Part shown: positions 12,803-34,242 of the stretch, in pieces
Numbering within the stretch: the stretch's first letter is position 1
How the letters are laid out: every line of letters starts with the position of its first letter
IMG/VR virus record: IMGVR_UViG_3300025120_010521
Length of the DNA: 64,000 nucleotides
Strand: one strand, 5' to 3'
Origin: a virus
Lineage: Duplodnaviria; Caudoviricetes
Program-made: the position numbers and the translations under genes
Notes under the pieces: model-generated
What the model saw: only the letters and a program-made list of their open reading frames with translations
What the model was told of the DNA's origin: nothing
Databases searched by the model: none

Positions 12803-12837
12803 AAGGCTCACTGTTGGACAAACAATGGTGAGCTTTT
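12803..12837. terminator. Bidirectional terminator
   Basis: AAGGCTCAC-TGTTGGACAAACAATG-GTGAGCTTT. Confidence 0.6.
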
Positions 12838-13410
12838 ATAATACTCATACACATCATTTATAGTCATACCATAATCAAAGTCAAGTTGAAACCCATAACG
12901 TGTCATTGTGTCGCCGCCTTTAGCACTGTGTAATTGTCCTGTGTTTACTACTACCGGGTGGTTGTAATACAGTGTTTTTGTATGTTCTCTTTTATTATTA
13001 TACCAACTAATAGAACCACCTGCAGGTTTAAATTCTACAAGTAAAGCTACCATTCGTTGTACATCTCGATGAATATTTAAAAACCAACCAGGAGACATCT
13101 TTGTGTATTGTTTTCTAACAATAAGACTTGTAGGCATATTTAAAACTTTACAAGTGTCTTCTACTATCTTTTCAATTAATGGACTACCATTAAAATCTGC
13201 TCCATGGTCAACATCTTGATAGTATACCCATTCATGATCGTTTTTATCTTCTTTAATACCTTCTTCATAAGTTACTTGGTGTCCTGCATAGGCTACATCA
13301 ACTTTTTGAAACTTATCTTTTAATTGGTCAATAGCATCAATGTTTGATTTATTATCTATTTTTAATTGTGGTAGTTCAAAGTACTCAAAGTGATTCATGT
13401 TTATCTCCAA
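12808..13410 (-). CDS. Putative 2OG-Fe(II)/cupin oxygenase
   Basis: LNIHRD...NTGQLHSAKG...RYGFQ (HxD...H...R). Confidence 0.5.
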   Translation of the reverse strand: MEINMNHFEYFELPQLKIDNKSNIDAIDQLKDKFQKVDVAYAGHQVTYEEGIKEDKNDHEWVYYQDVDHGADFNGSPLIEKIVEDTCKVLNMPTSLIVRKQYTKMSPGWFLNIHRDVQRMVALLVEFKPAGGSISWYNNKREHTKTLYYNHPVVVNTGQLHSAKGGDTMTRYGFQLDFDYGMTINDVYEYYKSSPLFVQQ

Positions 13411-14155
13411 ACTCTATTGCATAGTCTTTATATTTGTTCCAACTACGAACTAACGTATCTAAATGTTTATTAGGATCAATAGATCCTGTAGTAGTAATAA
13501 CAAACTTTTGTTGTTCAATTTTTTTAGCACCATGTGGTCTATCTAATTCATTTAATACAAATGTATTTGTGTCCATTGGTAGTTCCATAAATCTATAATC
13601 TTTTTTATCTTGTTGCTCTAAACGTTCTGTCCAAAATAAACTAGGTTCACGTACATCATTAATTAACAATCTGTATCCTGAAGGCTCTAAAGGTCTTAAA
13701 GTACTATGATCAGAAGATGATAAACCTGGCACATCCATATGCAATGGAACATCTCTGCGTTGTCTAATTAGTTCTGCATGATTGCATTGTATTGGTAATT
13801 GTTCTATTAGTTTAATTATTCCGTATAGTTCTTTTGGTAACGCAGGATTAATATTTACTTTTCTTTTTCTAGTTAAACGATTCAACCAACTTTCTCTAAC
13901 TTTATCTGCTTTGCCAAAGTCTTCTTCATCGAGCTGTCCAAGTAAACAAACAATACGCCATAATTCGTGTGGTGCAGTTTCTACATATGGAGCATTTTCT
14001 AAGTTGTTAGCTGAATAAGATTCCGTAACAACATCCGGTGGCCACATGTAGTTTCTATCATGGAATACTTCTAACTCGTCTAAATTAATTTTTTGGTAAG
14101 GCAAGTCGATTGGTAAGTAACATACGTTACGAAAGTCTTTATAGTCCTTCTTCAT
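13385..14155 (-). CDS. Putative 2OG-Fe(II)/cupin oxygenase
   Basis: VPLHMD...FVLNELDRPHGAKK (HxD...H). Confidence 0.45.
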   Translation of the reverse strand: MKKDYKDFRNVCYLPIDLPYQKINLDELEVFHDRNYMWPPDVVTESYSANNLENAPYVETAPHELWRIVCLLGQLDEEDFGKADKVRESWLNRLTRKRKVNINPALPKELYGIIKLIEQLPIQCNHAELIRQRRDVPLHMDVPGLSSSDHSTLRPLEPSGYRLLINDVREPSLFWTERLEQQDKKDYRFMELPMDTNTFVLNELDRPHGAKKIEQQKFVITTTGSIDPNKHLDTLVRSWNKYKDYAIEFGDKHESL

Positions 14156-14897
14156 CCTTATACCTCTTATCTAATAAAAAAGTTTTTATAACCCATCCTG
14201 GAAAATCTATTTCCCACCATTTTTCTTTATTCGTCCAACTCTGTGGTTTTTGATGATGTGTATTGTGTAGTCCACTACCAAGTGTTATTAGATTTACCCA
14301 TGTATTATTTGTACTACCATCAGGTGTATTAAATAATCTATAACCCCATTTATGACACAATACATTAACAGCACCAGCACTATGAAAAGTTATCACTGCT
14401 GGAATTGATATTAAAAATACTGCAATACGCCAATCAACTAAAGCAATGGCTCCATAAGAACATAGTAATAACTTTAAGTAATGTTGATGTATAAATTTAA
14501 TCCATTTATCTTTAATTAAATCTTTTACAAATTTTGTTTCAATTGTAAATGGTTCCCAAAAAGTTGTCCATATTCTCCATGCTGGTTGACCACCATGTGG
14601 ATCTTCTTTAGTTTCAGGAACTGCATGATGCTTTCTGTGTACACCACACCAAGCAATTGGTGATCCAAAACAGTTAAACATACTTAATATGATTAACATT
14701 CTTGATTTCCAATAAGATGTTTCAAAACTTTTATGTGATAGGTATCTATGTAAAGCTATTTCTCCACCGACTTTACCAAACATAATCCAGCCAATAAGAG
14801 ATAGCCATAGCCAGCTTAGATCTGCGTATAATAACCCTACTATAAGCAGTAAGTGGTTAGTTAATAAAATTAGTTTTAATTTATACTCGTAGCTCAT
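14139..14897 (-). CDS. Membrane fatty-acid desaturase (delta-9 type)
   Basis: His boxes HRYLSH, HRKHH, HNTHH; C-terminal WWEID. Confidence 0.9.
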   Translation of the reverse strand: MSYEYKLKLILLTNHLLLIVGLLYADLSWLWLSLIGWIMFGKVGGEIALHRYLSHKSFETSYWKSRMLIILSMFNCFGSPIAWCGVHRKHHAVPETKEDPHGGQPAWRIWTTFWEPFTIETKFVKDLIKDKWIKFIHQHYLKLLLCSYGAIALVDWRIAVFLISIPAVITFHSAGAVNVLCHKWGYRLFNTPDGSTNNTWVNLITLGSGLHNTHHQKPQSWTNKEKWWEIDFPGWVIKTFLLDKRYKDEEGL

Positions 14898-15546
14898 TCT
14901 TTTTTATAACCTGTGTATTGTATTTATTCGCACTTTGCTTTATTAGGTTTTGATGTTCTGATTTAATCACTTTTCCTAGTACAAACCCAACTATACGATC
15001 GTCATCGATACCTTCTTGTACATCAACACCGTGTGGCTGTGTACAATTATTAATTAAAAACGCATCTGTTTCTTCTGGTATTGTACAAAAATGTTTAAGC
15101 TGATTACTCATATCTTGACTATAATCATATTCTTTGCACATATACAAGCTATCACGTGATCCGCTTACTACAAATCTATATCCTATAGGTTCATTTGCTC
15201 GTTGATGATCAAACATTTCTTGAGTAATTGTCATATGATGTGGGTGTGGTGCTTTAACATAATTACCGTCCACATGTGGAGCAACATTCCCTGTTGACCG
15301 TGCTATTCTTACGTAAAATTTATATTCAAATGGAAAGTATGTATCTATCCAATTTAGTAATTCTGGATACTTTTGTTTAGCAGAAGCATTCCATTCCTGC
15401 ATTTCACCAAATGGTTTGGAAAGATCTTTTACCCCTAATAGTGTTTCTTCTTTCCACCATGCAAACTTTTCTCCACCGATGAAATTATCTAGTATCGATT
15501 GTTTGTTTGGAATTGGTGGTATATCTAAAGGAGTGAATACTATCAT
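14881..15546 (-). CDS. Putative 2OG-Fe(II)/cupin oxygenase
   Basis: VAPHVDG...FLINNCTQPHGVD...DRIV. Confidence 0.45.
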   Translation of the reverse strand: MIVFTPLDIPPIPNKQSILDNFIGGEKFAWWKEETLLGVKDLSKPFGEMQEWNASAKQKYPELLNWIDTYFPFEYKFYVRIARSTGNVAPHVDGNYVKAPHPHHMTITQEMFDHQRANEPIGYRFVVSGSRDSLYMCKEYDYSQDMSNQLKHFCTIPEETDAFLINNCTQPHGVDVQEGIDDDRIVGFVLGKVIKSEHQNLIKQSANKYNTQVIKKNELRV

Positions 15547-16304
15547 CTTTGCACAAATGCCTTCTCTACTACAAATTGTCCTGGAATGGATGTGTTACCT
15601 TCCTGCATACCTAAAGACTCAAAATGTTCAATTAAATCTTTGTTAAGACCTTGCGATCCACATATCATAAATCTATCTTCTTTTGTATCTAAACTTTGTC
15701 CAGCAGTCTCAGAAAACAATTTATTATTCTTTATCCATTCAGTAATTCTACCTTTGCGTGGCCAGTCTTGTTGCGTTAGTGTATTGAAATACTTAAAGTT
15801 TCCTAGTGTTAATTCTTTCCATTCTTCATTAAACCAATTAAGAGGCTCATGATATGCTAACTCGTTTTCATACTGTACTGTATGAGTTAAGATAACTTTT
15901 TCAAAACGTTCATATGTCGCAGGATCTTTTATTATTCCTAGAAATGGTGCAAGACCTGTACCTGTTGCAATCAAGTATAAATTACGACCAGGTAATAGGT
16001 AATCAATTACAAGTGTACCTGTTGATCTAGGATTAATTAGTATCTCATCACCTTCTTTAATATGTTGTAGTTTTGATGTTAATGGTCCATCATTTATTTT
16101 AATAGATAGGAATTCTAAATAATCTTCATGATTGGCTGATGCAATTGAGTATGCTCTCATTAATTTTTTACCTTCATGCTCCATACCTATCATTGCAAAC
16201 TCACCGTTATTAAATTTGTTTGGATAGTTTCTTGTAGTTTTAAATGAAAACGTTTTATCGTTCCAGTGTTTAACCCAAGTTACTGTTTCTTTATTAACTG
16301 CCAT
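15543..16304 (-). CDS. fpr: Ferredoxin/flavodoxin-NADP+ reductase
   Basis: RAYSIAS, GPLTSKL, ATGTGLAPF, MICGS, C-terminal VEKAF. Confidence 0.92.
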   Translation of the reverse strand: MAVNKETVTWVKHWNDKTFSFKTTRNYPNKFNNGEFAMIGMEHEGKKLMRAYSIASANHEDYLEFLSIKINDGPLTSKLQHIKEGDEILINPRSTGTLVIDYLLPGRNLYLIATGTGLAPFLGIIKDPATYERFEKVILTHTVQYENELAYHEPLNWFNEEWKELTLGNFKYFNTLTQQDWPRKGRITEWIKNNKLFSETAGQSLDTKEDRFMICGSQGLNKDLIEHFESLGMQEGNTSIPGQFVVEKAFVQR

Positions 16305-17519
16305 TTATACGTTCCTTGTGTTACCATACTCAATTACTGTGCAACCTTCTAACTGTGGACATTGTCTCCACGGGTCAACAATAATTGATCCTTTTGGAAA
16401 ATCATATTTAGAAGTGTCATCTGTACCGTATGTTACGTTTGGATTATGTGCAAGTAGATAAACTGCGTTACCTAAATCTTTTGGTGGCTGATCACCTGTA
16501 TGCTCATCTTTATAATATAATGTTCTACCTGCTTTTTCAATGTAATGTCCAATAAGCAAACTATATGATCCATTAGTGTAAGGCACGTGAGGCTTATATG
16601 CTTTACCTACAATCACAATTGGTAAGTTATACGACATTAATTTTTTAGCAAGATTTTCTGCTTGTATTTCTCTAGCACCCATAATAGCATCAAACAAATC
16701 GTAACCTAAGCCTAGATGGTCTGCCATCCAACGTAATGCAATGTTATCACGTGGGTGACAAGCACCGCCATCGCCCATACCTGCTGTCATATATTTTGGA
16801 CCCATAATACGCATATCAGAATATGCAAGTGCAGATGTTACTACATCAACATTAATATTACCCTGTTTTTCTGCTACGTCTTGAATCATATTTACTAAAC
16901 CAATCTTTGCTGAAATAAAGGTGTTGTAAAAAATTTTAATTGATTCACATTCATCCCAAGTACCAACTACATATCTAGGACTATTCTGCATCATTGGTTT
17001 ATAAAAATCTATAAGCTCTTTTGCATCACCAGTTTTTGATCCATCTTCAGTACCAATCATAATCATTTCTGGATTTACCATATCCCATTTTACTGACCCC
17101 ATTGCAATTAGGTACGGGTTATAAACAAAACGTGCATTTGTAATTAAAGGTTCAAGCTCACGTCTTGTTGTACCTGGTAGTACTGTTGATATAAGAACTA
17201 CTAATTGTTTTTTGTTAACAACCTTATTAACTTCTTTTAAAATATTTTTTACAATTGTATAATCAAAATCTTTTGGCTCTAAGTGTGCTGTTGGTGTTGA
17301 CCCATCATAACGTGGATCATGTGGTGTTGGCGCCGCAATAAAAACAATATCTTTGTCTTTTACTGTTTCAGAAATTGATGTCTTCATTGCAAAATTTTCT
17401 GGTGTTCTTGGTTCTACATCGTAGCCTTCAACCATATATTGTTGTGCCATAACTTCTGCACAGTCTTGTCCTAGTTTACCGCAACCTATCATTGCGACTT
17501 TTGTATTTTTTGGTTTCAT
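16305..17519 (-). CDS. ugd: UDP-glucose/GDP-mannose dehydrogenase family protein
   Basis: IGCGKLG Rossmann motif, STVLPGT, YNPYLI, GDGGACHPRD. Confidence 0.85.
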   Translation of the reverse strand: MKPKNTKVAMIGCGKLGQDCAEVMAQQYMVEGYDVEPRTPENFAMKTSISETVKDKDIVFIAAPTPHDPRYDGSTPTAHLEPKDFDYTIVKNILKEVNKVVNKKQLVVLISTVLPGTTRRELEPLITNARFVYNPYLIAMGSVKWDMVNPEMIMIGTEDGSKTGDAKELIDFYKPMMQNSPRYVVGTWDECESIKIFYNTFISAKIGLVNMIQDVAEKQGNINVDVVTSALAYSDMRIMGPKYMTAGMGDGGACHPRDNIALRWMADHLGLGYDLFDAIMGAREIQAENLAKKLMSYNLPIVIVGKAYKPHVPYTNGSYSLLIGHYIEKAGRTLYYKDEHTGDQPPKDLGNAVYLLAHNPNVTYGTDDTSKYDFPKGSIIVDPWRQCPQLEGCTVIEYGNTRNV

Positions 17520-19000
17520 GAATATACCCTCACTTTATGTTGTTGTTCAAATGCGTCTGCATGTTGTCTTGTGTTTACTAACGGTTCACCTTTAATATTT
17601 AGGCTAGTGTTTAATAATATTGGACATCCTGTTTGATCATAGAACTTTTTAATTAAATTATAAAATCCTGGTGCTTCTTTTTGTGTTACTGTTTGTACAC
17701 GAGAAGTACCATCAGCATGTATTATTGCTGGAAACTCTTGTGGCTTTCTACATATAGCAACTGCCTGCATATATGGTGATTCTGTAATACCTCCTGGCAT
17801 TGTAAAATATTGATGAACATGTTCTTCAAGAATAGCAGGAGCAAATGGTCTAAACTTTTGTCTTTTTTTAATGTCATTTACTCTATCTTTTATTTCAGTG
17901 CCTCGAGGATCAGCAAGTAGACTTCTATTACCTAATGCTCTTGGTCCAAACTCTGCTTTGCCACTTGCTACACCAATAATATTTCCATTTAATAATGCAT
18001 CACAGGCAGAATCTACAGGATAATCACCTTCAATATTTGTACCTAAGAAAGGTCCTTGCCAATCTAACTTATCGCCATAACCTATTGCCGCGGCTCCTAA
18101 TGAATTACCTGCGTCGCCTGGGTTAGGCATAATCCATATATTTGGATTTTTATTATACATTAATGAATTAGCTACACAATTAAGTGCAACTCCTCCCATC
18201 CATACAATGTTTTTTTGTGAACTATATGAACGTGCTATTTCAAATAGTGTAAGAATTTTCTTTTCAATAACTTGTTGAATTGATGCCGCAACGTCATATG
18301 AAAACTGATGATCAATCAACGGCATGTGTGCCATCCATTCCTCAATACCTGCATGAACATTCATTGTTAGTTTCAAAGGATCTTTTTTATCAAAGAAATG
18401 CTTTTCAATATCTTTTGCATACTTTGGTTCTCCATAGGCCGCCATGCCCATTAAAATGTATTCTTCTTCGTTTGCTTTTAATCCAACTCTTTGTGTGAAT
18501 GCTGAATACAATAACCCCAACGAGTGTGGATATTGGTATGTCTTTAATCTTTTTAATCCGTTTGGTGCTGTATATTCCCATATTGACATAGTATCAAACT
18601 CTCCAATAGCATCAGCAACAATAACACAGGCACTATTGTAAGGTGATGTATATGCTCCTGCGGCCGCGTGTGCTTTATGATGTTCTACATATTCTAACTT
18701 ATGTGGTACCATATGTTGGAACTGTTTCATATATTGTGATGGTAAGTTAGACGTTTGAAATAATTCATTCCATTGCCCAGAAACCATTTGTCTACGTTTT
18801 TTTAGCCAAGGTCTTTCATGCCATATAACCTTATCTGGATCACCATGTTCTAATGCTTCATTTATTATTTCATCGCACAAGTAAGGATCATTTTTTATTC
18901 TTGTGTATCTTTCTGTATGACCAGCAAATACTATTTGATTGTCTTTTATTACAGATAAAGATCCATCATGACCTAAACCACATATACCCCAAGTTATCAT
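17516..19000 (-). CDS. Carbamoyltransferase (NodU/CmcH family)
   Basis: GHDGS, HHKAHAA, GGVALNC, EFGPRALGNRS, FRPFAP, NTSLN. Confidence 0.92.
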   Translation of the reverse strand: MITWGICGLGHDGSLSVIKDNQIVFAGHTERYTRIKNDPYLCDEIINEALEHGDPDKVIWHERPWLKKRRQMVSGQWNELFQTSNLPSQYMKQFQHMVPHKLEYVEHHKAHAAAGAYTSPYNSACVIVADAIGEFDTMSIWEYTAPNGLKRLKTYQYPHSLGLLYSAFTQRVGLKANEEEYILMGMAAYGEPKYAKDIEKHFFDKKDPLKLTMNVHAGIEEWMAHMPLIDHQFSYDVAASIQQVIEKKILTLFEIARSYSSQKNIVWMGGVALNCVANSLMYNKNPNIWIMPNPGDAGNSLGAAAIGYGDKLDWQGPFLGTNIEGDYPVDSACDALLNGNIIGVASGKAEFGPRALGNRSLLADPRGTEIKDRVNDIKKRQKFRPFAPAILEEHVHQYFTMPGGITESPYMQAVAICRKPQEFPAIIHADGTSRVQTVTQKEAPGFYNLIKKFYDQTGCPILLNTSLNIKGEPLVNTRQHADAFEQQHKVRVYS

Positions 19001-19515
19001 TTTGCACTCACCATTAATTGTTTTACTTCATATGATTGATCAATAATCCATTTTATTGTTTCAACTATATCTTTATATGACAGCTTTGCTCCATCATAGT
19101 CTTTGTTAAATTCTGTATCAACATACCCTAGTCCTAGTGTTGTAATTTTACATTTACGTTGTTGATTGTGTAACAATTCAACTTGCGAATGTAATGCAAC
19201 TTTCTCTACAGGATATTGCTGGTGCACTACTTGCCAGTTACTATAAGGAACTGTATCAACACCAATGTTAATTATTAATTTGCTATAATCTTTCCATGCT
19301 GTAAAAACATCATTTAACAATTCTACTTGTCCAAATCCTTCATGTGCATTATTAATAAACACATCACAATCATTAATAGCATGAACTATTTTAGTTCTTG
19401 AATTTTTATCAGTAATATCAAATCCTTGTGATTTACTTAATCCAATACTATTTGGAAATGCATCATAGATTGCCTTACCAATTCTTTTTGTGTGTCCAGT
19501 AATTGCTACTTTCAT
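18997..19515 (-). CDS. Short-chain dehydrogenase/reductase-like protein
   Basis: KVAITGHTKRIG, FINNAH, YxxxK (YPVEK). Confidence 0.75.
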   Translation of the reverse strand: MKVAITGHTKRIGKAIYDAFPNSIGLSKSQGFDITDKNSRTKIVHAINDCDVFINNAHEGFGQVELLNDVFTAWKDYSKLIINIGVDTVPYSNWQVVHQQYPVEKVALHSQVELLHNQQRKCKITTLGLGYVDTEFNKDYDGAKLSYKDIVETIKWIIDQSYEVKQLMVSAK

Positions 19516-19874
19516 TCTTTTAAATATCCTTTTCTTATTTGTGTAGCACTAATTTTATGAATTTCTTCACCAAGGTCATGTTTAGTAAACGTATATCCTA
19601 CATCTCTTCCATAACTAATATCTACAATATTCGGAACACTAATAATATCATAATCGTGTTTAAATACGTATCCTTCTTTTGATAAATGCTCTTGTATTTT
19701 TAAACCAACCTGACCTCCTGCATATGGATTACTGTTATTAACTTCCATATCACGTATCATTATTACCACTTGCCCAGTTTCATTCATTGCTTTTTTAAAT
19801 AAAGCTGTATGCCCATCATGCCATGGTTGAAATCTTCCTAGCATTTGTGCTGTTGGTTTTTTACTATTGTACAC
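19512..19874 (-). CDS. Cytidylyltransferase-like (HxGH) nucleotidyltransferase
   Basis: GRFQPWHDGH and ISATQIR motifs. Confidence 0.85.
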   Translation of the reverse strand: MYNSKKPTAQMLGRFQPWHDGHTALFKKAMNETGQVVIMIRDMEVNNSNPYAGGQVGLKIQEHLSKEGYVFKHDYDIISVPNIVDISYGRDVGYTFTKHDLGEEIHKISATQIRKGYLKE

Positions 19875-25035: not shown

Positions 25036-25158
25036 TTTTTTATAAGTATACAGTAAAATCTTAATTAAATCAATATAAAGTGTGTACTTTATATATTTAC
25101 CACTTGCATTCTATGATAAATATATGTATAATATTGCTTATTAGGAGAAATAATTAAA

Positions 25159-26278: not shown

Positions 26279-26388
26279 TGAACGATCCATTAAGTTATAA
26301 ACTTAAAAAACTTATTGAGTGGCTATTAATACAGCAGGTTCCTGCTATTTTAGTAATACTATTTTTAATTTACTACTTTATATTTTAA
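26278..26388 (+). CDS. Small membrane protein (36 aa), not in ORF track
   Basis: MNDPLSYKLKKLIEWLLIQQVPAILVILFLIYYFIF; TAATG coupling to the SET gene. Confidence 0.5.
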   Translation: MNDPLSYKLKKLIEWLLIQQVPAILVILFLIYYFIF

Positions 26389-27999: not shown

Positions 28000-29780
28000 T
28001 ATCTTTCGCTCCCTATAGCAACAATCTCAGTTGGTTTAATACGAGCGTCTGTACCATACATACTCATATCAAATTCTTTTTTCCATTCTGATATATCATA
28101 TTTAACCAACTTCTCTGGAAATACTTTTGACAAATCTTCTACAAACTGATCTTGGTTATGCCAAAACTGATATATTTCATCTGCACGTAAACATCTTGAA
28201 AAATACAAATATGTTGCTAAATCTTTTACTTCTGTTCTTGGCTCATCTTTAAATATATTTCTAATTATTTGTCTGTTCTTTTCTACTAGTTTAATCATTA
28301 AAGGCATTTTATCTAAATGCTTATAAAACCATTTAACTTGGAACTCTATATCATGCCCAGTATCAAATAAATCTTTCATAGTATGATTTAATGCTCTTGA
28401 GTTATGAAAGTTATGGTAGAACCACCAATAGTCAAACATACGAACAATTTCATCTTCATCATATGAAAAACATTTATGCATAATTTCTATCTCTTCAAAT
28501 TCATATGTGCTACGTTCATCTCTGTACTCTGGATGATTATGCAATTGCTTATATCCTAGTCCTGAAAACGAATAAGGAAATGCAAGTATCTTAGATTCTA
28601 CCTTGTGTTCTTTTTGAAACTTATCTGTATATAATTCTGTATTAGGTACTAGGTTTAAAAAGTATGATCGCATAAAATCAATACCAAGCTCATAATCTTT
28701 ATTCAATGAGTATAACCAACTGTCTGCTGTTTCGCCAGGTAAAGCAATAATCATTTCTGATGTTACTGGTAATCCTTTAGACTTAAAACTATCAATTAAA
28801 GGTAATAGTTTATCATTGTTAATATTTGCTCTGTTAATAACTTTTAATGTTTCTTTTGCATGTGTTTGGAAACTTACTTTCAAATTACGTTGATCAGCAT
28901 CTAAATTGTTATGTATTATATCGATAATCTCTGGTAACCATTTACTACCATTCTTTGCAAGTCCACTATAAGATATTTTAGGATTATTGCCTGTTGCTTC
29001 TTTATTTGCTTTCATTTTTTTAACGACATCTAAATCTCTAGGTAACATACCAAAGTTAGCATCAAGTATCTCTACTTCTGCTATGTTGGTGTGTTTGTAT
29101 ATAAAGTCTAATTGTTCATTTACAGGATCCATATCAAACTTTGTAACTTTTGATCTTGCTTGTCCACCCCAATCGCAGAATGCACATTTAAAAGGACAAC
29201 CACGATTAGTTTCAAATGATGCTTTAACTCTTTTTTCTTCAGCAAGTATAGAATCAAATACTCCATCTAAATATGGTGTAGGCATTTCATGAGTTTCAAT
29301 TTGATATAATTTTTTTCCTACCTCTACGTTATTCCATCCTAACCCAAAACTACCGTCATGTGTACTCATTGGAGTATCAATATTTTGTAAAAACTTACTA
29401 ATTAACTTTTCACCAGGACCTACCCAAAATATATCTATATAAGGATGATCTTTTGCAAACTTTTCTGCAAGTTTAGGATCTTCAGGTACATTAGGTCCAC
29501 CATACATTGTAATACCATTTGGGTTTACATCTTTGTAATGACTCATCAATTGATCATTATATGCTTGGTTCCATACGTAACAAGTTAACCCAAATACATC
29601 AATATTTTTAAACTCTTCTGTATATTCTTCTACAGGTTTATATTTGTATATTGGATCATTGAATTTATAATTTGATTTTATTTCTGGAATCTTATTACAG
29701 TAACTAATAAGGCATGCCGCGGCATATGGCAACCATGTTTCATGTATAACCGATACTGTGCCTAATTGTACTGTTTTCAT
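27999..29780 (-). CDS. Cobalamin-dependent (class B) radical SAM protein
   Basis: N-terminal B12-binding-like domain (GLTCYVWN, YGGPNV, GPGE) followed by ETNRGCPFKCAFCDWG. Confidence 0.85.
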   Translation of the reverse strand: MKTVQLGTVSVIHETWLPYAAACLISYCNKIPEIKSNYKFNDPIYKYKPVEEYTEEFKNIDVFGLTCYVWNQAYNDQLMSHYKDVNPNGITMYGGPNVPEDPKLAEKFAKDHPYIDIFWVGPGEKLISKFLQNIDTPMSTHDGSFGLGWNNVEVGKKLYQIETHEMPTPYLDGVFDSILAEEKRVKASFETNRGCPFKCAFCDWGGQARSKVTKFDMDPVNEQLDFIYKHTNIAEVEILDANFGMLPRDLDVVKKMKANKEATGNNPKISYSGLAKNGSKWLPEIIDIIHNNLDADQRNLKVSFQTHAKETLKVINRANINNDKLLPLIDSFKSKGLPVTSEMIIALPGETADSWLYSLNKDYELGIDFMRSYFLNLVPNTELYTDKFQKEHKVESKILAFPYSFSGLGYKQLHNHPEYRDERSTYEFEEIEIMHKCFSYDEDEIVRMFDYWWFYHNFHNSRALNHTMKDLFDTGHDIEFQVKWFYKHLDKMPLMIKLVEKNRQIIRNIFKDEPRTEVKDLATYLYFSRCLRADEIYQFWHNQDQFVEDLSKVFPEKLVKYDISEWKKEFDMSMYGTDARIKPTEIVAIGSER

Positions 29781-30379
29781 AATACCTCTGAAACATCTTT
29801 TATAGTTCCATTATGTTGATGCAATATTACTGCGTTGGTTGGTTTCCATTTATAATTTGGATCAATGTAATAGCTATAGATAAACTGTATCATATTTGAT
29901 TTTGGCTTATCGTGAAACACTAGATCTTTTTCAAGTGTTAGCTTTTTATAATCTTCATCTTCAAACCAACTGTTATCGCCACCTACGTATTTTTTCTTAT
30001 GCTGAAATAATTTATTAATTGCTACATCTTTAACATCATGTGTCCAGTAATAATGTTTAAACCCATTGTCTTTTGCCCAAGCAATTTGATGCTTCATCAT
30101 TTTAAATCCATAACGTCCATGCCTGTGTTTTTTAAGAATATGATATCTGCATTTCCTAATAGACTCTGGAGTGCCTGTGATAAAACTTCTTTCAGCATAA
30201 CTTATACTAGCAACTTCGTTATCAACTAATGCTAACCACAAACTGCTTTTATCATCTAATTCATCTATGTTAAATTTTTCTTTTTTATAAGTTCCGGAAC
30301 TTCCTTCTATTACTGCTTGTATGAGAAAGTCTTCAACTATTGGTTTATATGCTGAAGTATATTTTAATATTTTTTCCAT
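29777..30379 (-). CDS. GNAT-like acetyltransferase (start probably 30379)
   Basis: YHILKKHRHGRYGFKMMKHQIAWAKDNG resembles GNAT motif A. Confidence 0.5.
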   Translation of the reverse strand: MEKILKYTSAYKPIVEDFLIQAVIEGSSGTYKKEKFNIDELDDKSSLWLALVDNEVASISYAERSFITGTPESIRKCRYHILKKHRHGRYGFKMMKHQIAWAKDNGFKHYYWTHDVKDVAINKLFQHKKKYVGGDNSWFEDEDYKKLTLEKDLVFHDKPKSNMIQFIYSYYIDPNYKWKPTNAVILHQHNGTIKDVSEVL

Positions 30380-30380
30380 A

Positions 30381-31043
30381 TTATATGTACCATGATTCAA
30401 TAGATATATTTTTGATATGCACATTCTTTGGTTGGTTGACCATATAGTATACTGATTCAGCTATCTTATCTGATGGTACTAGTTTTACTCCCATAGGAAT
30501 TGTTTTTTTATATTCAGGAGATTTTTCAAATAGTCCTGTGTCTACCCAACCTGGTCTTATGATAGAAACTTTACATTTTCCTTTTCCATAAACACCAAAG
30601 TTATCAACAACTGTTTCTAATGCAATTTTTTGATGATAATAAGGTTTGACTATTTCAGCTGGCTCATTATGATCTTTTGCTGTTGACCCTATGCAAATAA
30701 TCAGTTTATTTTGTTTTTGCCACATTTCATAAACAGCATAGAGTAAATCTAACTGGCTCCATTGTAAGTGAGCATTGTTGATGAATATATCATAGTCTTT
30801 GATTTCTCTCAAAAATCTTTTTGTATCTTCTGTGTATTCAAAGTCTTGGTGTTTATCAGATTCTTGATCAGTAGTATATTGTTTTCCGATGTTTTTTAAA
30901 TTAAAACCTGTGGCACGACTAAAGCCAACAACATCATGGCCTTGTAAAATTCCCATATTGTATATGGATTTACCAATTCCGGATGTATGACCTGTTACTG
31001 CTATTTTTAAATTTTTAGAAGATTGAGTCTTCCTTTTTCCCAC
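30381..31043 (-). CDS. Short-chain dehydrogenase/reductase-like protein (paralog of 18997-19515)
   Basis: IAVTGHTSGIG, FINNAH, YYHQK, PGWVDT. Confidence 0.8.
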   Translation of the reverse strand: MGKRKTQSSKNLKIAVTGHTSGIGKSIYNMGILQGHDVVGFSRATGFNLKNIGKQYTTDQESDKHQDFEYTEDTKRFLREIKDYDIFINNAHLQWSQLDLLYAVYEMWQKQNKLIICIGSTAKDHNEPAEIVKPYYHQKIALETVVDNFGVYGKGKCKVSIIRPGWVDTGLFEKSPEYKKTIPMGVKLVPSDKIAESVYYMVNQPKNVHIKNISIESWYI

Positions 31044-31044: not shown

Positions 31045-31797
31045 TTATTTTACCTCTAATTGTTTTATGAACCAACCACCCATATCAAACTCCCACCATT
31101 TATGTTGAAAATTTGAATTGTTAGGATTTGCATGATGATTATTATGCCAGCCTTCACCCCACATTAATATTCCTAACATTGGAACATTAGTTGAGTTATC
31201 AGGAGTTTCATGGTTTCTATATCCAATCATATGAGAAAGAGTGTTAATAAATGATCCTGCATTCCAAAGTATCATTGCTGGAAATAGATAAGCTGATACT
31301 AGTAACATTGGATCAATCATATACCATGTTCCGGCAATTGCTAAATGTATTAAAATATAATATCTATGAGTGAACAAATGAAATTTATTTCTAATAAGTT
31401 TAACAACGTACCTCGGTTTTGGCTTATCAAACATGCTTAACCATTGAACTTTAAAAAAGCCTTTGTACGATGGTGAGTGTGGATCATCTTCGCTATCAGT
31501 ATGCACATGGTGTTCTCTATGAATAGCTACCCATCCTATAGTTGATCCGGTTAACCCGTATGTACCTGCTAGTGATCCAAAGTAGTAAAACCATTTAGGC
31601 GCCTTCCAACTTGCATGACTTAACAATCTATGATATGTCATTGTCATTCCAAAACATCCAGTAATAAAATATACAAAAAATGCTATCACCCAATGATACC
31701 AAGCACCATACACAATCATAGGTATAATGCTTAGATGTGCGATCATCTGAGCAACAAATAAAAAATACTGATCTTTAGTTGTTTCTTGCTTTTTCAT
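31045..31797 (-). CDS. Membrane fatty-acid desaturase (delta-9 type), second copy
   Basis: HRLLSH, HREHH, GEGWHNNHH, WWEFD. Confidence 0.92.
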   Translation of the reverse strand: MKKQETTKDQYFLFVAQMIAHLSIIPMIVYGAWYHWVIAFFVYFITGCFGMTMTYHRLLSHASWKAPKWFYYFGSLAGTYGLTGSTIGWVAIHREHHVHTDSEDDPHSPSYKGFFKVQWLSMFDKPKPRYVVKLIRNKFHLFTHRYYILIHLAIAGTWYMIDPMLLVSAYLFPAMILWNAGSFINTLSHMIGYRNHETPDNSTNVPMLGILMWGEGWHNNHHANPNNSNFQHKWWEFDMGGWFIKQLEVK

Positions 31798-31853
31798 GGT
31801 TTTCCTTTATTAACACAATTATAACAATATTTATCCTAATTTACAAGTCTATA

Positions 31854-33716
31854 TTAAAACTTTAATTTCCATCCAACTGTTATATTTCTTCCGCCTTGAT
31901 TATAACCATCTGGTCTTTCATACTGATCATCTGTTAAGTTTTTTACGTTTAAAACTATTTCAGAATCTTGTGTTAGATAATAACCTGCTGTAAGATCTGC
32001 TGTTGTTCTTTCTTTAACAGTAATAGTTGACCAGTTAACTGAGTCAGTATCTCTATGATCACCATAATATAATATGCTAGGTGATATATAATAGTTATCT
32101 TTAGCATAAGTTACACCAGATTTCCAAGTAGTATGAGGTCTACGTTTTAACCAAGTACCTGATGAATCTTGTGCTGATGTTAGTGCTACATTGTTCACAA
32201 AGCTAAAATTACCAACATAGTAAGTAAAGTCAATGTCTGCACCCTTCATATTAGATGTTCCATTACTATCATTATTATATGTTGAATTAGAGTATGTTAT
32301 CATGTCTTTGATATCTGTTGAATAAAAAGCAATATCAAAATTATAAGATTTATCTTTACGATTATATCCTATTTCATTACTAACAGATTGTTCTGCTTTA
32401 AGATTTACGTTACCTGTGTAACCATAGTTATCTGCACCATATAGTTCATACAGTGTTGGTGCTTTATATCCTGTTGATTGGCTTATACGAAAACCATTAT
32501 ATGCCGCTCCAATTGAATATGTTGATTGACCATTTGCAATAGAATGCTCGTCATGTCTTAAACCACCTGATACAATTAGATTGTTTGTAAATGAATAATC
32601 AAAGTTATGATATATCCCTGTTACTGATGCTGACTTATCAACTGTAGAATTATAGCTACCTGTATTATTAAAGTCTACATCAAATCCAGTTACATCTACA
32701 CCTGTTTTAGTTGATACTTGGTCTGAACTTGTTACCCAATCTAAAGATCCATGTGTTGCAACAGAATCATAATTGTCTATTTCTGTTCCATTTACGTATT
32801 GTCTATCCCATATAGTATGATCAAAAACTGTTTTTATCTTTCCATACTTTACATCAGTTGACGTCTGCATTTGTCCAAAGTAAAACTTTGTTTCATTTGT
32901 ATAATCCAAATCATCTGCACCTGAGGCATCAATATCTGCGTTGGTTGTATTTGTTACTCCTGTAAATTTAATCTTTGTATCATCAAGAGTTATAACATGC
33001 CCAACATTAAATCCTAATACATCATATCCATCTGGTTCTGTACCCTGTGGATAAACTGATATCCCGTCTGACTGTTCTGTATATATTCCAAAGGTAAAAA
33101 AATCTTTACCATATGTATAAGCCATAGTGTTTGTGTCATGTGACCCTTGCGATATGGAAAATTCATTTTGTTTGTAATCAGATGTTTGTATATCAACAAC
33201 ACCACCAACTGCATTTGGTCCGTAGTTAGTACTCATTGGTCCTGTGTATAAATGTAAACCATCTGCAAAATGTATGTTAATGTTGTTTAAATCTGTAGCA
33301 CCATTTGTTGTTGAGTAGTCTGTAATTGCTGACCCGTTAATTGTTACAAGTGTGTGATTTGAATTTGTTCCTCTTGTAAATAACGATGTCTGTTGTCCTG
33401 CTGGTCCTGATCTAACTGCATTAAAACTTGGTGCGTCTTCTAATGCTTCTGATAATATGCTAGACCCTTCTTTCTTTTCATCGTCTAACCAAATAAACGA
33501 ATCTGTGTATATTCTATCTGCTTTTTGAGATGCTGTCATTGTATGAAATATTGGTATGTTTATTACCAATGAATCACATACAATTGTTTCATCCATCATT
33601 TCTTCCCAATAACATTCATTCTCTCCTGCTTTTGCAGGTTTAATTAAAAATGCTACAAATAATATTGCTAATACTATTATTCCTCTTCCGATGTTTCTTT
33701 TGCCTTCACTATTCAT
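31854..33716 (-). CDS. btuB: TonB-dependent receptor, BtuB (vitamin B12)-like
   Basis: Signal peptide; DETIV TonB-box-like; plug GQQTSLFTRGTNSNHTLVTING and GPMSTNYGPNAVGGVVDI; C-terminal YERPDGYNQGGRNITVGWKLKF. Confidence 0.8.
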   Translation of the reverse strand: MNSEGKRNIGRGIIVLAILFVAFLIKPAKAGENECYWEEMMDETIVCDSLVINIPIFHTMTASQKADRIYTDSFIWLDDEKKEGSSILSEALEDAPSFNAVRSGPAGQQTSLFTRGTNSNHTLVTINGSAITDYSTTNGATDLNNINIHFADGLHLYTGPMSTNYGPNAVGGVVDIQTSDYKQNEFSISQGSHDTNTMAYTYGKDFFTFGIYTEQSDGISVYPQGTEPDGYDVLGFNVGHVITLDDTKIKFTGVTNTTNADIDASGADDLDYTNETKFYFGQMQTSTDVKYGKIKTVFDHTIWDRQYVNGTEIDNYDSVATHGSLDWVTSSDQVSTKTGVDVTGFDVDFNNTGSYNSTVDKSASVTGIYHNFDYSFTNNLIVSGGLRHDEHSIANGQSTYSIGAAYNGFRISQSTGYKAPTLYELYGADNYGYTGNVNLKAEQSVSNEIGYNRKDKSYNFDIAFYSTDIKDMITYSNSTYNNDSNGTSNMKGADIDFTYYVGNFSFVNNVALTSAQDSSGTWLKRRPHTTWKSGVTYAKDNYYISPSILYYGDHRDTDSVNWSTITVKERTTADLTAGYYLTQDSEIVLNVKNLTDDQYERPDGYNQGGRNITVGWKLKF

Positions 33717-34242
33717 AGAGACCTTTCCTGTTAACTACCATTAAGTAGATGTTGTGTAAAGGTCGAGATAATGCTATAGTCAGTGACACCATTAAGGCAG
33801 TATAAACAACTGTGCCTAACAGTGTATTTTGGAAAAATGGTATTGCCATTGTGTAACACATTATTAATCCTTCTAATGTGTTAGGATAGTAGTCCCACAT
33901 AATCCATACTGCAAAATTTGTTACTACAAAAAATAACACTGATGATCCTATTGTCATTATTGCTAATGGTATGTATTTGCCAAACTGCATAGCCCATCTG
34001 CTAATAACTGTGGACATTGCTATTGATCCATAAACCCAAAGCATATAAGGATGAAACCCTATAAACACATCTCCAATAAACATTGCCATTAATGGTACTG
34101 CTATTGCTATCCAACGATCGTTAACGATGTATGGTGCAAATATAGCCGCGGCCAATATTGGTGTAAAGTTTGGTGGATGTGGTATGAGTCTACCTATGGC
34201 GAGAATGCCAGAAATATATAAAAATGACAGTATAATCTTCAT
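33709..34242 (-). CDS. DUF6580-like inner-membrane protein (putative cobalamin transport component)
   Basis: RLIPHPPNFTPILAAAIF, FFVVTNFAVW, CYTMAIPFFQNTLLG; several TM helices; overlaps btuB start. Confidence 0.7.
   Translation of the reverse strand: MKIILSFLYISGILAIGRLIPHPPNFTPILAAAIFAPYIVNDRWIAIAVPLMAMFIGDVFIGFHPYMLWVYGSIAMSTVISRWAMQFGKYIPLAIMTIGSSVLFFVVTNFAVWIMWDYYPNTLEGLIMCYTMAIPFFQNTLLGTVVYTALMVSLTIALSRPLHNIYLMVVNRKGLYE

Follow-up and report, generated by a model that had tools for sequence, protein, structure and literature searches.

A conserved enzyme core shared by large phages and bacteria

A ~21-kb block (positions 12808–34242) in the genome of an uncultured marine giant phage contains a conserved enzyme core: a cobalamin (B12)-dependent radical SAM enzyme, a PLP enzyme, a mini-SDR, a desaturase and a number of oxygenases, sometimes joined by a SET-domain protein. 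As this core recurs in dozens of large phages and a few predatory bacteria, it probably represents one working pathway. The first-pass annotation of the window (the whole 64,000-nt stretch of DNA analysed here) had presented the entire block as its best candidate for an undescribed system, namely a dedicated pathway. The new point is the specific core only, as tailoring-enzyme islands of marine phages have already been published in outline (PMC2938197, PMC7824862, PMC7029224, PMC5332604), and the 21 kb is no indivisible pathway but is made up of the conserved core, lineage additions and cofactor supply.

In 36 viral contigs carrying a B12 enzyme ≥33% identical to that of the window, we counted the gene families up to 10 kb away from it. 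The core was recovered near the B12 enzyme of this clade in 36 of 36 contigs. AspH-like oxygenases were present in 100% of them (1–7 copies each), the PLP-like enzyme in ~97%, the desaturase in ~92%, the mini-SDR in ~85%, and the oxygenase families P4H_A and P4H_B in ~80% and ~75%, respectively. As an internal control, 45 contigs whose B12 enzymes were more distant were scored for the same families, which occurred in 0–20% of them. The core families held together (≤10 kb) over B12-enzyme identities from 95% to 34%, also in bacteria.

The proposed linkage of the block genes withstood a comparison of gene neighbourhoods in relatives: gene order was shuffled, and the genes were still linked. Recurrent adjacencies included desaturase-PLP-AspH-B12, PLP-B12-P4H_B, radical SAM-SDR (the family of the radical SAM gene at 21405 usually adjoins the mini-SDR gene) and SET-AspH, the last pair being kept where loci share ≥40% identity. 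For every close relative, and for some loci at 46–51% identity, the GNAT gene lies immediately upstream of the B12 enzyme gene. The DUF6580 and receptor genes move as a pair, which was relocated or lost in some relatives. The carbamoyltransferase (restricted to close relatives and a few other loci), sugar dehydrogenase, FNR, BtuB-like receptor with DUF6580, and N-twitch radical SAMs are lineage-specific additions.

The core set was also found on Bdellovibrionales chromosomal contigs, one of which was 398 kb long with ABC-transporter flanks. Phage polymerase was absent from these core-bearing genomes, and phage structural genes were absent beside the module. The bacterial versions additionally carry TauD (amino-acid hydroxylase type), PALP and EgtB-like FGE-domain enzymes. 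SufB/D genes were located within the island of a 328-kb relative.

Organization and gene content of the block

The block is made up of three units, A, B and C, each led by a promoter-like site (Table 1). The near-gapless run of coupled genes reported at first pass was confirmed: the coding fraction was 0.979 with 24 ORFs, and same-strand junctions included six ATGA and two TAATG overlaps. The remaining overlaps between block genes measured 8 to 44 nt, and a single same-strand gap exceeded 2 nt (56 nt). The dN/dS ratio was 0.03–0.35 in 23 of the 24 genes, indicating purifying selection, with one exception. Catalytic motifs were intact across the block enzymes in residue checks of the B12 enzyme, PLP enzyme, SDR, oxygenases, desaturases and N_Twi_rSAM. 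Judged by low dN/dS, intact motifs and 98% coding density with stop/start overlaps, the block genes are functional. GC content was even over the block and both flanks.

Table 1. Features of the block and of its surroundings in the window
Positions	Strand	Unit	Feature	Evidence and remarks
188–1396	−	outside	Radical SAM-SPASM	
4493–5689	−	outside	N_Twi_rSAM	
6569–7159	−	outside	AspH-like (Asp/Asn-hydroxylase-like)	
7596–8039	−	outside	Flavodoxin	
8512–9672	+	outside	N_Twi_rSAM	
9693–10742	+	outside	Radical SAM-SPASM	
12808–13410	−	C	Oxygenase-like, final gene	HRD motif, distal His; phage DSBH family HMM E 3e-6
13385–14155	−	C	Oxygenase-like, distant P4H_B paralogue	HMD motif, distal His; no family in databases searched; matches same L005 gene as 14881
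14139–14897	−	C	Second delta-9-type desaturase, 252 aa	PF00487 E 5e-14; HRYLSH, HRKHH, HNTHH His boxes; TM segments
14881–15546	−	C	Fe/2OG oxygenase-like, P4H_B, core	HVD motif, distal His; prolyl 4-hydroxylase by name in Atlas viral clusters (score 0.96–0.98)
15543–16304	−	C	Fpr-type ferredoxin/flavodoxin-NADP reductase (FNR), accessory	PF00175, PF00970; NF008178 E 7e-36
16305–17519	−	C	Divergent NDP-sugar dehydrogenase, accessory	PF03721, PF00984, E ~3e-16; TIGR03026 133.6 bits, under 189.8 cut-off
17516–19000	−	C	O-carbamoyltransferase (NodU/TobZ/GdmN family), accessory	PF16861 E 1e-55; PF02543 E 4e-37; PDB relatives GdmN, NovN, TobZ
18997–19515	−	C	Mini-SDR, 172 aa, core	Family alignment motifs kept
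19512–19874	−	C	Nucleotidyltransferase-like fragment, 120 aa, doubtful member	PF01467 E 2e-5, confined to residues 13–46
19877–20743	−	C	Minimal fold-type I PLP enzyme, 288 aa, core, HisC/CobD/C-S-lyase-like	D157, K184, R192 invariant among 17 sequences; AF2 pLDDT 84; Foldseek 3p1t, 3fkd, HisC at E ~5e-10
20746–21408	−	C	Cupin/Asp-Asn-hydroxylase-like oxygenase	PF05118 and Cupin_2, E ~1e-3, below cut-off; HRD motif, distal His; captured by AspH family HMM
21405–22571	−	C	Radical SAM, separate strongly conserved family	PF04055 E 2e-12; 64–74% identity in distant loci L008, L009; no match in PDB
22562–23830	−	C	N_Twi_rSAM paralogue	NF033640 322 bits; start probably at 23779; four N-terminal Cys invariant, plus CxxxCxxC; AF2 pLDDT 88; fold matches only generic radical SAM, TM 0.35–0.41
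23788–25035	−	C	N_Twi_rSAM (radical SAM, N-terminal twitch domain)	NF033640 243 bits (cut-off 170)
25045–25073	−	C	Putative promoter-like site before 14-gene unit	TTGATT, 17 nt, TATACT; overall result of promoter scan not above chance
25105–25133	+	B	Putative promoter-like site	TTGCAT, 17 nt, TATAAT, then AGGAG
25159–25974	+	B	Asp/Asn beta-hydroxylase-family oxygenase	PF05118 E 8e-6; HID motif, distal His
25952–26278	+	B	Minimal SET-domain methyltransferase	PF00856 E 2e-8; ORF open from 25877, start probably at 25952; weak matches to KMT2 SET domains
26278–26388	+	B	Hydrophobic 36-codon ORF	Coupled to stop codon of SET gene; 86–89% identical in L002, L003, L013
26385–26543	−	A	Basic 52-codon ORF, uncertain gene	Start overlaps oxygenase stop; single weak relative, 56% in L003
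26543–27232	−	A	Fe/2OG oxygenase (2OG-FeII_Oxy_3), P4H_A	PF13640 E 8e-8
27232–27999	−	A	Fe/2OG oxygenase-like, P4H-type, P4H_A	HTE motif, distal His; paralogue of 26543–27232 (33% identity, E 4e-41)
27999–29780	−	A	Cobalamin-dependent (class B) radical SAM, TokK/CysS/KedN5-like	TokK E 3e-49 (residues 15–387); CysS E 2.4e-33; KedN5 family 155 bits; CxxxCxxC invariant; dN/dS 0.04–0.07
29777–30424	−	A	GNAT acyl/acetyltransferase	PF00583 22.3 bits (cut-off 20.7)
30381–31043	−	A	SDR oxidoreductase, 220 aa	adh_short E 1.5e-6; paralogue of 18997–19515 (30% identity, E 5e-20)
31045–31797	−	A	Delta-9-type (SCD/DesC) membrane di-iron desaturase, 250 aa, core	PF00487 E 1.4e-13; DesA family 106.7 bits; HRLLSH, HREHH, HNNHH His boxes; TM segments
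31854–33716	−	A	TonB-dependent outer-membrane receptor, BtuB-like	Plug and barrel domains; Sec signal peptide ending AKA; TonB-box-like DSLVIN; dN/dS 0.08–0.28
33709–34242	−	A	DUF6580 small polytopic membrane protein, gene 1 of unit	PF20221 E 3e-44; at least four hydrophobic segments; 8-nt overlap with receptor gene; PDB and literature gave no match
34291–34321	−	A	Putative promoter-like site, read from sequence	TTGACA, 17 nt, TATAAATA (five copies in whole window, minus strand only); sigma-70-like, T4 late-promoter word also matched
39614–40612	−	outside	Radical SAM-SPASM, paralogue of 9693–10742	

Family assignments agreed with the first-pass annotation for four radical SAMs, two desaturases, the FNR, carbamoyltransferase, two SDRs, PLP enzyme, GNAT and SET protein, and its UDP-sugar dehydrogenase corresponds to the NDP-sugar dehydrogenase. 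All seven proposed oxygenases possess an HxD/E motif and a distal His; four (20746, 25159, 26543, 27232) are backed by a Pfam match or paralogy to one, and three (14881, 13385, 12808) by Atlas name and family HMMs. The nearest solved relative of the oxygenase at 25159 is Cpz10, a small-molecule beta-hydroxylase in caprazamycin synthesis (PMC9814697). TGxxxGxG, NNAH and YxxxK were retained in the SDR family alignment (A3), including the mini-SDR. The B12 radical SAM is probably a C-methyltransferase and the anchor of the core, judging by its homologues. Two functions named earlier are less secure. The proposed cytidylyltransferase matches only in its N-terminal HIGH-type motif; it is a short ORF without an orthologue in close relatives, whose PLP gene directly adjoins that of the SDR. 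For B12 uptake, TonB-B12 (TIGR01779) was the top NCBIfam match of the receptor, but at 180.7 bits it lies below the equivalog cut-off of 599.7, and a search found no cobalamin riboswitch; the B12 role is thus putative. The DUF6580 protein is a possible inner-membrane partner of this receptor.

Profile searches detected no glycosyltransferase, PKS/NRPS or ATP-grasp within 12808–34242, upholding the absence of the first two noted earlier. As a scaffold-forming enzyme, a carrier protein and a glycosyltransferase are all absent there, the block content does not name the substrate.

The block is one concentration inside a genome-wide radical SAM expansion and not an isolated island. There are 10 radical SAM genes in the window and 22–23 in related genomes, and their scatter over the relatives' genomes makes one island with one product less convincing. 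Block-type genes continue at 188–10742 and 39614–40612.

Proposed pathway and its substrate

Gene identities, intact motifs, purifying selection on all but one gene, operon-like packing and the co-location of the core genes are observations; the single-pathway nature of the core, the type of substrate, and which way and to what end the chemistry runs are what we infer from them. Tentatively, we propose a three-layer phage-encoded tailoring pathway with a lipid or lipid-linked envelope molecule as its likeliest target, a reading to which we give somewhat less than an even chance. In the first layer, the core, the B12 C-methylase, a PLP amino-transfer/decarboxylase-type enzyme, the mini-SDR, the delta-9-type desaturase and Fe/2OG hydroxylases would act sequentially on one non-ribosomal substrate, with SET and GNAT transferases as frequent companions. 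The core genes travel jointly and are shared by large aquatic phages with Bdellovibrio-like bacteria. In the second layer, the carbamoyltransferase, NDP-sugar dehydrogenase and three more radical SAMs, added in this phage lineage, would supply extra decorations. The third layer would serve cofactors: the BtuB-like receptor and DUF6580 protein may import cobalamin, while the Fpr-type FNR and the flavodoxin at 7596 may deliver electrons to radical SAM clusters, cobalamin and desaturases; the SufB/D genes in the island of the 328-kb relative are further support for a cofactor layer. The target would lie in the envelope of the infected cell, for example an aminolipid, glycolipid or lipid A altered on an acyl chain or in its head group, so that the cell surface or membrane would be changed during infection.

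A lipid or lipid-linked target is favoured because the membrane desaturase belongs to the core. The closest characterised homologues are small-molecule enzymes: TokK and CysS for the B12 enzyme, Cpz10 for the AspH-like oxygenase, and GdmN, NovN, TobZ and NodU for the carbamoyltransferase. The TauD, PALP and EgtB-like enzymes of the bacterial versions lean towards a small molecule or lipid too, as does the negative search for an RRE/PqqD domain or precursor peptide. A nucleotide or DNA, also listed at first pass, is hard to reconcile with an integral-membrane desaturase or a module residing in bacterial chromosomes. The PLP enzyme is HisC/CobD-like and unlike sugar or sphingolipid PLP enzymes, which counts against a lipid. 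Since the GNAT, SET protein, carbamoyltransferase, FNR and receptor are not universal, some of the 21 kb may have other purposes.

Two further observations are counterpoints to a lipid target: the SET, AspH and P4H families have protein-acting precedent, and the module lies near fibre genes, Mtd-type in one phage lineage and, in the window, a 1654-aa tail fibre ~11 kb from the block. Co-location in itself is no proof of one pathway.

Alternative explanations

Proteins are the classical substrates of AspH- and P4H-type oxygenases and of the GNAT family, and SET domains are known as protein-lysine methyltransferases only. Together with the radical SAM and B12 enzymes, these families could modify a phage structural protein (tail fibre or receptor-binding protein) after translation, or else some protein of the host or a short peptide, tuning adsorption or stability. 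We consider this unlikely, although it fares best among the alternatives. Beta-hydroxylase/sulfotransferase neighbourhoods were predicted by Iyer et al. in 2010 to modify tail-collar and collagen-like proteins (PMC2938197), and distant versions of the module contain sulfotransferases and, in nine loci, an Mtd_N fibre gene. The island occupies a tail-fibre-proximal variable region, comparable to the pelagimyophage 'host recognition cluster' (PMC7029224), and the top (weak) fold matches of a twitch-type radical SAM were sactipeptide maturases and anSME. However, profile and small-ORF searches found no precursor peptide, RRE/PqqD recognition domain, leader peptidase/protease or exporter, leaving a RiPP-like peptide the least supported of the substrates listed at first pass. 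Collagen-type repeats are missing from the tail fibre, and neighbouring proteins have no C-terminal Asn-Cys repeats. The core desaturase, SDR and HisC-like PLP enzyme have no obvious protein role, the B12 enzyme matched a RiPP C-methylase model far more weakly (E 8e-11) than the small-molecule methylase TokK, and the bacterial modules lack phage structural genes.

Alternatively, the block could be a hypervariable 'junkyard' of independent auxiliary genes with no common product, combining lipid desaturation, cofactor uptake, mixed oxygenases and radical SAMs of unrelated function. Such islands have been called hypervariable (PMC7029224), and the shuffled order, mobile or lost receptor pair, lineage-confined accessory genes and dispersed radical SAMs are in line with this. 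We judge it improbable, given the cohesion of the core families down to 34% B12-enzyme identity, bacteria included, their near absence beside more distant B12 enzymes, and particular pairs that remain adjacent and translationally coupled.

Marginally less probable still is a soluble secondary metabolite, in which an amino acid or similar precursor would become a diffusible decorated toxin, antibiotic, signal or osmolyte in the infected cell. The nearest characterised homologues all tailor natural products, the bacterial versions carry TauD-type hydroxylases for amino acids plus PALP and EgtB-like FGE-domain enzymes, and cyanophage carbamoyltransferase/dioxygenase clusters were suggested by Iyer et al. 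to make a secondary metabolite (PMC7824862). Against this, the phage loci have neither a core synthase nor an exporter, the membrane desaturase is almost universal in the module, and a lytic giant phage would have scant time to gain from a diffusible product.

Although the TonB receptor, the FNR and the sugar dehydrogenase look cellular, host-derived misassembly or contamination is ruled out by the even GC, the phage genes on both flanks and the recurrence of the same arrangement in at least seven viral contigs of independent origin, one of them a complete genome of 328 kb that has terminal repeats. Near-identical DNA also turned up in 13 or more marine metagenome studies, where contigs bridge the block junctions. 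The T4-type DNA polymerase and tail-fibre genes confirm that the genome carrying the island is that of a phage.

Conservation of the Core Across Viral Loci

We surveyed the loci around homologues of the cobalamin-dependent radical SAM enzyme of the block (hereafter the B12 enzyme), comprising 79 viral loci and two metagenome contigs. The ORFs of these loci were searched with family HMMs built from the window proteins, using a scoring distance of 10 kb. We compared 36 loci whose B12 enzyme was at least 33% identical to that of the window with 45 loci carrying more distant B12 enzymes. AspH-like oxygenases were present at all of the 36 loci (100%, one to seven copies), the PLP enzyme at ~97%, the desaturase at ~92%, the mini-SDR at ~85%, the two P4H-like oxygenase families at ~75–80%, the 21405-type radical SAM enzyme at ~60%, and the twitch radical SAM enzymes (N_Twi_rSAM) at ~47%. 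SET proteins were found at 70–86% of the loci with a B12 enzyme more than 40% identical, and the GNAT mainly at the closest loci. Beside the 45 more distant B12 enzymes, the core families were found at only 0–20% of the loci, so that the pattern is not accounted for by their mere abundance in phages.

The first-pass annotation had proposed a dedicated pathway, at odds with any free shuffling of its genes among relatives. The genes proved to be linked, with the core lying within 10 kb of the B12 enzyme, although its order varies by lineage. Several pairs persisted despite these changes in order: desaturase–PLP, PLP–B12, B12–P4H_B, radical SAM–SDR, and SET–AspH. The core, which counts about eight families, is inherited together and is under selection; at least 36 viral contigs carry it, as do chromosomes of predatory bacteria.

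The carbamoyltransferase, the sugar dehydrogenase, the FNR, the receptor, and DUF6580 were restricted to close relatives of the window, among which the receptor pair was relocated. Other lineages possessed additions such as sulfotransferases, a nitroreductase, TauD-type dioxygenases, a PP-loop enzyme, a methyltransferase-like protein, and further oxygenase families. In 25 distant module versions (loci L015, L017, and L019–L043; for example, L034:15996–16454), the SDR and desaturase genes are separated by the gene of a highly conserved 153-aa protein of unknown family, which is missing from the window.

Integrity and Architecture of the Block

A misassembly, which the first-pass annotation had named as a possible artefact, does not account for the block: the same gene set was found on at least seven IMG/VR contigs at a protein identity of 80–95%, one of them a complete 328-kb genome with terminal repeats. 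Near-identical DNA was detected in runs of at least 13 marine metagenome studies, with contigs spanning the unit boundaries. Relative to the IMG/VR relatives, dN/dS was 0.03–0.35 for 23 of the 24 block genes. Exact fragments of several island genes were present in one metatranscriptome library, as contigs with patchy coverage for which DNA carry-over is possible.

The almost gapless, coupled run described at first pass was recovered as 24 ORFs with a coding fraction of 97.9%, whose junctions include six ATGA and two TAATG overlaps. The block splits into three units (see the table). The described lack of glycosyltransferases also held, as none was found inside the block. Conserved linkage, coupling, and selection together argue that the core is probably one functional unit.

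A scan for consensus promoters and terminators yielded no excess over the shuffled expectation, and the three promoter-like sites are candidates read by eye. The T4 late-promoter word TATAAATA occurred five times in the window versus ~14 expected; all five sites are on the coding strand, and those that were inspected sit directly 5' of genes, including the DUF6580/receptor unit. The 36-codon ORF of unit B ends in a hydrophobic stretch and is coupled to the stop codon of SET; its identity in three relatives is 86–89%.

Coordinates of the features in the window
Feature	Position (nt)	Strand	Remarks
Enzyme-rich block	12808–34242		Units A, B, and C
Unit A	34242 to ~26385	−	DUF6580, receptor, desaturase, SDR, GNAT, B12 radical SAM, and two oxygenases, in this order
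Unit B	25159–26388	+	AspH-like gene, SET, 36-codon hydrophobic ORF
Unit C	25035 to 12808	−	14 coupled genes
Promoter-like site ahead of unit A		−	TTGACA-17-TATAAATA, read from sequence
Promoter-like site ahead of unit B			TTGCAT-17-TATAAT, read from sequence
Receptor	31854–33716		Next to DUF6580
B12 enzyme	27999–29780	−	Anchor of the locus survey
36-codon ORF	26278–26388	+	In unit B
PLP enzyme	19877–20743
Mini-SDR	18997–19515
Further radical SAM genes	188–10742; 39614–40612		Outside the block
Flavodoxin	7596–8039
TATAAATA sites	10966, 34291, 52835, 53082, 55561	−
tRNA genes, two clusters	1741–2084; 5706–6015	−	Six genes
Kinase-like paralogues	2467–3240; 3237–3920	+
HNH endonuclease genes	35768–36313; 37224–38447	−
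AAA ATPase	41592–42683	−	Phage "CobS-like" family
Glutamine riboswitch aptamer	53026–53073	−	glnA-type
DNA polymerase	61298–63787		T4-type family B

Enzymes of the Block

Almost all items on the first-pass enzyme list were upheld by Pfam, NCBIfam, Atlas, and motif reading. The four radical SAM enzymes comprise two with an N-terminal twitch domain (NF033640), one of a separate family, and one of the cobalamin type. The latter, the B12 enzyme (593 aa), aligned with TokK over residues 15–387 (E 3e-49), covering the cobalamin and radical SAM domains, and with CysS (E 2e-33). It has the class B domain order, with cobalamin binding at the N-terminus and a CxxxCxxC radical SAM core behind it, in which C195, C199, and C202 are invariant. 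PF02310 was recorded for many of its homologues, but not for the window protein itself. It did not reach the cut-off of any named equivalog (KedN5, TokK, PhpK, and others), the best being NF033712 with 155 bits against a cut-off of 700, and tblastn detected no homologue among 50,697 GenBank phages.

Seven small proteins carry an HxD/E...H iron triad. Pfam or paralogy backed four of the seven oxygenases listed at first pass, and an Atlas name and family HMMs backed the other three. Both short 250-aa desaturases possess HRxxSH, HRxHH, and HNxHH boxes together with membrane helices, and by motif they would be acyl desaturases of the delta-9 (SCD/DesC) type.

The 288-aa PLP protein is a shortened fold-type I enzyme, ~70–100 aa below the normal length. 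D157 (the pyridine-N Asp), K184 (the Schiff-base Lys, in an S-x-S-K motif), and R192 (the phosphate Arg) were invariant in 17 homologues. Its predicted model (pLDDT 84) matched the large-domain fold of HisC/CobD-like enzymes, with Foldseek E-values of ~5e-10 to 3p1t, 3fkd, and HisC (HisC, CobD, C-S lyases). A profile search for this family initially returned TALE repeat proteins, which were discarded as summed weak repeat matches.

Two items of the list fared less well. The "cytidylyltransferase" is doubtful: it is a 120-aa fragment-like ORF that matched a HIGH-motif segment only and had no orthologue in the relatives. The NDP-sugar dehydrogenase scored below the TIGR03026 cut-off, with no C-terminal domain detected, so that the block lacks the complete nucleotidyltransferase and above-cut-off dehydrogenase of a nucleotide-sugar pathway. 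"B12 uptake" was retained in part. BtuB was the best-matching family of the receptor by a wide margin, and the plug, barrel, signal peptide, and TonB-box-like motif that characterize BtuB structurally were all present, but the scores fell far under the equivalog cut-offs (180.7 against 599.7 for TIGR01779; 124.7 against 836 for NF007926), and no cobalamin riboswitch was found at the Rfam gathering threshold. Searches of PDB sequences returned no match for the twitch radical SAM enzyme, the 21405 radical SAM enzyme, DUF6580, or the GNAT.

Radical SAM Expansion and Cofactor Supply

The window contains 10 radical SAM genes, five of which belong to the twitch family; against the NF033640 cut-off of 170, scores of 354, 322, 243, and 188 bits were obtained. 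These enzymes share invariant C5, C23, C63, and C66, which form an N-terminal four-Cys cluster domain, followed by CxxxCxxC. The complete 328-kb relative had 22 radical SAM matches spread genome-wide, 14 of them over the twitch cut-off, and a 243-kb relative had 23, including 17 over the cut-off. A tandem run of ~12 radical SAM genes was observed at 198–219 kb of the latter genome. With 14–17 paralogues per genome, one radical SAM family has expanded to an unusual extent for a virus. Atlas clusters of the twitch family were 93–100% viral; only three remote records were detected among 50,697 GenBank phages. In a fold search, the model of one member (pLDDT 88) gave generic matches to known radical SAM enzymes and no substrate clue. 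We know of no twitch-family member with a known reaction.

An Fpr-type FNR is encoded inside the block and a flavodoxin outside it, at 7596–8039; no flavodoxin was found in the two related genomes searched. In E. coli, radical SAM clusters and cobalamin enzymes are reduced by electrons from the pair of Fpr and flavodoxin. In the complete 328-kb relative, SufB/D-type Fe-S assembly genes (65667–66395 and 71601–72062) lie within the island and flank the B12 radical SAM gene on both sides.

Bacterial Counterparts

In a set with one genome per prokaryote species, the B12 enzyme had full-length close matches almost exclusively in MAGs of Bdellovibrionales, Pseudobdellovibrionaceae, and Bacteriovoracaceae. 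The loci of these MAGs carry the same core and additionally encode a TauD enzyme, a PALP enzyme, and an EgtB-like FGE domain. One such locus is on a 398-kb contig with a flanking ABC transporter, and the carrier genomes contain no phage polymerase, indicating that these loci are bacterial. Within the phylum the module has a patchy distribution, with ~5 strong matches among 301 genomes, which points to horizontal transfer.

One further candidate, a 6.9-kb contig labelled as a Phycisphaerales MAG (L095, JBIKJV010000344.1), was left out of the cellular count. It carries phage-specific families, among them homologues of the window genes at 34725 and 35375, and is probably a phage contig mis-binned into a bacterial MAG.

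Comparison with Known Systems

The block has the composition of a marine myophage tailoring island of the multi-dioxygenase/HRC type: several unrelated small dioxygenases in tandem, together with transferases, in a variable part of a phage genome close to the fibre genes. Such islands with dioxygenases, carbamoyltransferases, and radical SAM enzymes are already known in outline (PMC2938197, PMC7824862, PMC7029224, PMC5332604). The feature described here is real and conserved. Two papers describe a ten-dioxygenase array in the marine cyanophage Syn9 (Iyer et al. 2010, PMC2938197) and a ten-gene cluster in S-SSM6a (Iyer et al. 2021, PMC7824862). Shared with these are the arrays of unrelated small Fe/2OG and cupin oxygenases, a NodU/CmcH-type carbamoyltransferase, methyl- and acetyltransferases, the lack of a scaffold enzyme, and a product that is not known. 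A TonB-receptor association was noted there for the bacterial counterparts of the cyanophage clusters. Unlike those clusters, the island has no halogenase and no HAD phosphatase, and its core (cobalamin radical SAM enzyme, minimal PLP enzyme, mini-SDR, membrane desaturase) is absent from the passages of these papers that were consulted.

The "host recognition cluster" of pelagimyophages (Zaragoza-Solas et al. 2020, PMC7029224) and the radical-SAM-rich T4-like genomes, one with 12 radical SAM genes and Fe-S genes (Nishimura et al. 2017, PMC5332604), likewise have a large variable island near tail-fibre genes, with radical SAM cassettes, a UDP-glucose dehydrogenase, and an Asp/Asn hydroxylase. 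Fe-S assembly genes alongside many radical SAM genes are common to these genomes and the phage group of the window. The published genomes have at most 12 radical SAM genes, compared with 22–23 (14–17 twitch) in the relatives of the window phage. The window block differs further in having no glycosyltransferases inside it. Neither paper reports the conserved core or its occurrence in Bdellovibrionales. The literature searched contained no report of this specific core or its Bdellovibrionales occurrence, of a phage B12 radical SAM enzyme with a BtuB-like receptor, or of a twitch expansion of such size.

Among pathways for small molecules, the B12 enzyme resembles the class B methylases TokK/ThnK (carbapenems), CysS (cystobactamid), and KedN5 and keeps the CxxxCxxC motif, but its neighbours have only enzyme classes in common with the carbapenem, cystobactamid, and kedarcidin pathways. 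The same presumably applies to the island and the sphingolipid, capnine, carnitine, Nod-factor, and saxitoxin-type pathways. PF05118 and PF00487 are shared with LpxO/OlsC and with phage and cyanobacterial delta-9 acyl-lipid desaturases at the family level only; the island proteins are much shorter, and the nearest solved relative of the AspH-like protein is a nucleoside-antibiotic enzyme, not a lipid hydroxylase. The link of the island oxygenases to LpxO/OlsC is one we assume from general knowledge.

Radical SAM/SPASM RiPP clusters (sactipeptides, ranthipeptides, proteusins) resemble the island in having several radical SAM enzymes with auxiliary Fe-S domains, and we take the combination of a B12 C-methylase with hydroxylases and N-methyl/acetyl transferases to be like that of polytheonamide-type pathways. 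In contrast to RiPP clusters, the island is without a precursor, RRE, protease, or exporter, and its auxiliary cluster domain, a twitch with one cluster, sits at the N-terminus. In its predicted model, the twitch enzyme gave only weak fold matches to the maturases (TM ~0.4).

Substrate and Function

We favour a non-ribosomal small molecule as the substrate, most likely a lipid or lipid-linked envelope component. This preference is based on the integral-membrane acyl-type desaturase being nearly universal in the module, on the closest characterised homologues all acting on small molecules or sugars (TokK, CysS, Cpz10, GdmN, NovN, TobZ, NodU), on the addition of amino-acid-type enzymes in the bacterial versions, and on the hallmarks of ribosomal-peptide pathways all being missing. 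A plausible sequence would lead by hydroxylase, SDR, and aminotransferase from C-H through C-OH and C=O to C-NH2, with C-methylation and desaturation in addition.

A fuller proposal, which we offer tentatively and consider rather unlikely to hold as a whole, is that the core (the B12 enzyme, minimal PLP enzyme, mini-SDR, delta-9-type desaturase, and numerous small Fe/2OG hydroxylases, in some cases with SET) is a complete mobile pathway of a hitherto undescribed kind. It would C-methylate, desaturate, repeatedly hydroxylate, and aminate a lipid of the envelope or a molecule linked to such a lipid. Giant aquatic phages would thereby alter the surface of the infected cell, and Bdellovibrio-like predators their own envelope or that of their prey, with cobalamin import, electrons, and Fe-S assembly supplied by the phage.

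Modification of proteins, for example those of the tail, is an unlikely alternative in our view. The main evidence for it, and against the small-molecule reading, is the protein-type flavour of the SET, AspH, P4H, and GNAT families, together with the position of the island near the fibre genes and the published prediction that hydroxylase/sulfotransferase neighbourhoods modify tail-collar proteins (PMC2938197). The 1654-aa fibre contains no collagen-type repeats as a P4H substrate, and no fibre tips with Asn-Cys repeats were detected in neighbouring proteins. A ribosomal peptide is the weakest reading: no ORF of at least 20–25 aa in the gaps and flanks had a leader/core look or belonged to a repeated family (those at 26278 and 26385 encode poorly conserved peptides of hydrophobic or basic character), none of ~40 proteins scanned had an RRE (PqqD-like, PF05402-type) domain, and no leader peptidase or exporter was found in the block.

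A vague island has become a defined test object with its own apparent cobalamin and electron supply. An envelope lipid or a virion modification as the product would bear on phage host range and superinfection exclusion, as well as on how infected marine cells manage B12 and iron. Genes for chemistry without an explanation make up a tenth or more of large marine phage genomes.

Source Phage and Other Features of the Window

The window derives from an uncultured marine giant phage. Its T4-type polymerase was 52% identical to that of Sinorhizobium phage Phosso and 48% identical to that of Atu_ph07. A glutamine riboswitch, tRNAs, and the gene of the 1654-aa tail fibre are likewise present in the window. 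The block had no megablast match among 50,697 GenBank phages. GC content (0.29–0.35) was even over the block and its flanks.

The two tRNA clusters lie amid the upstream radical SAM genes. The riboswitch aptamer scored 56.9 bits against a gathering score of 35. Two paralogues near the start of the window, 36% identical to each other, have a kinase-like catalytic-loop look ("DWNPDNILYD ... LVDLQPV") and resemble small-molecule or LPS kinases; neither had a Pfam match. The AAA ATPase matched phrog_1297 and, weakly, phrog_249 ("porphyrin biosynthesis"); its gene is a few kb away from the B12-related genes, and any link to cobalamin would be a candidate only. The two HNH endonuclease genes separate the island from the radical SAM gene that follows; as possible mobile elements, they could contribute to cassette shuffling.
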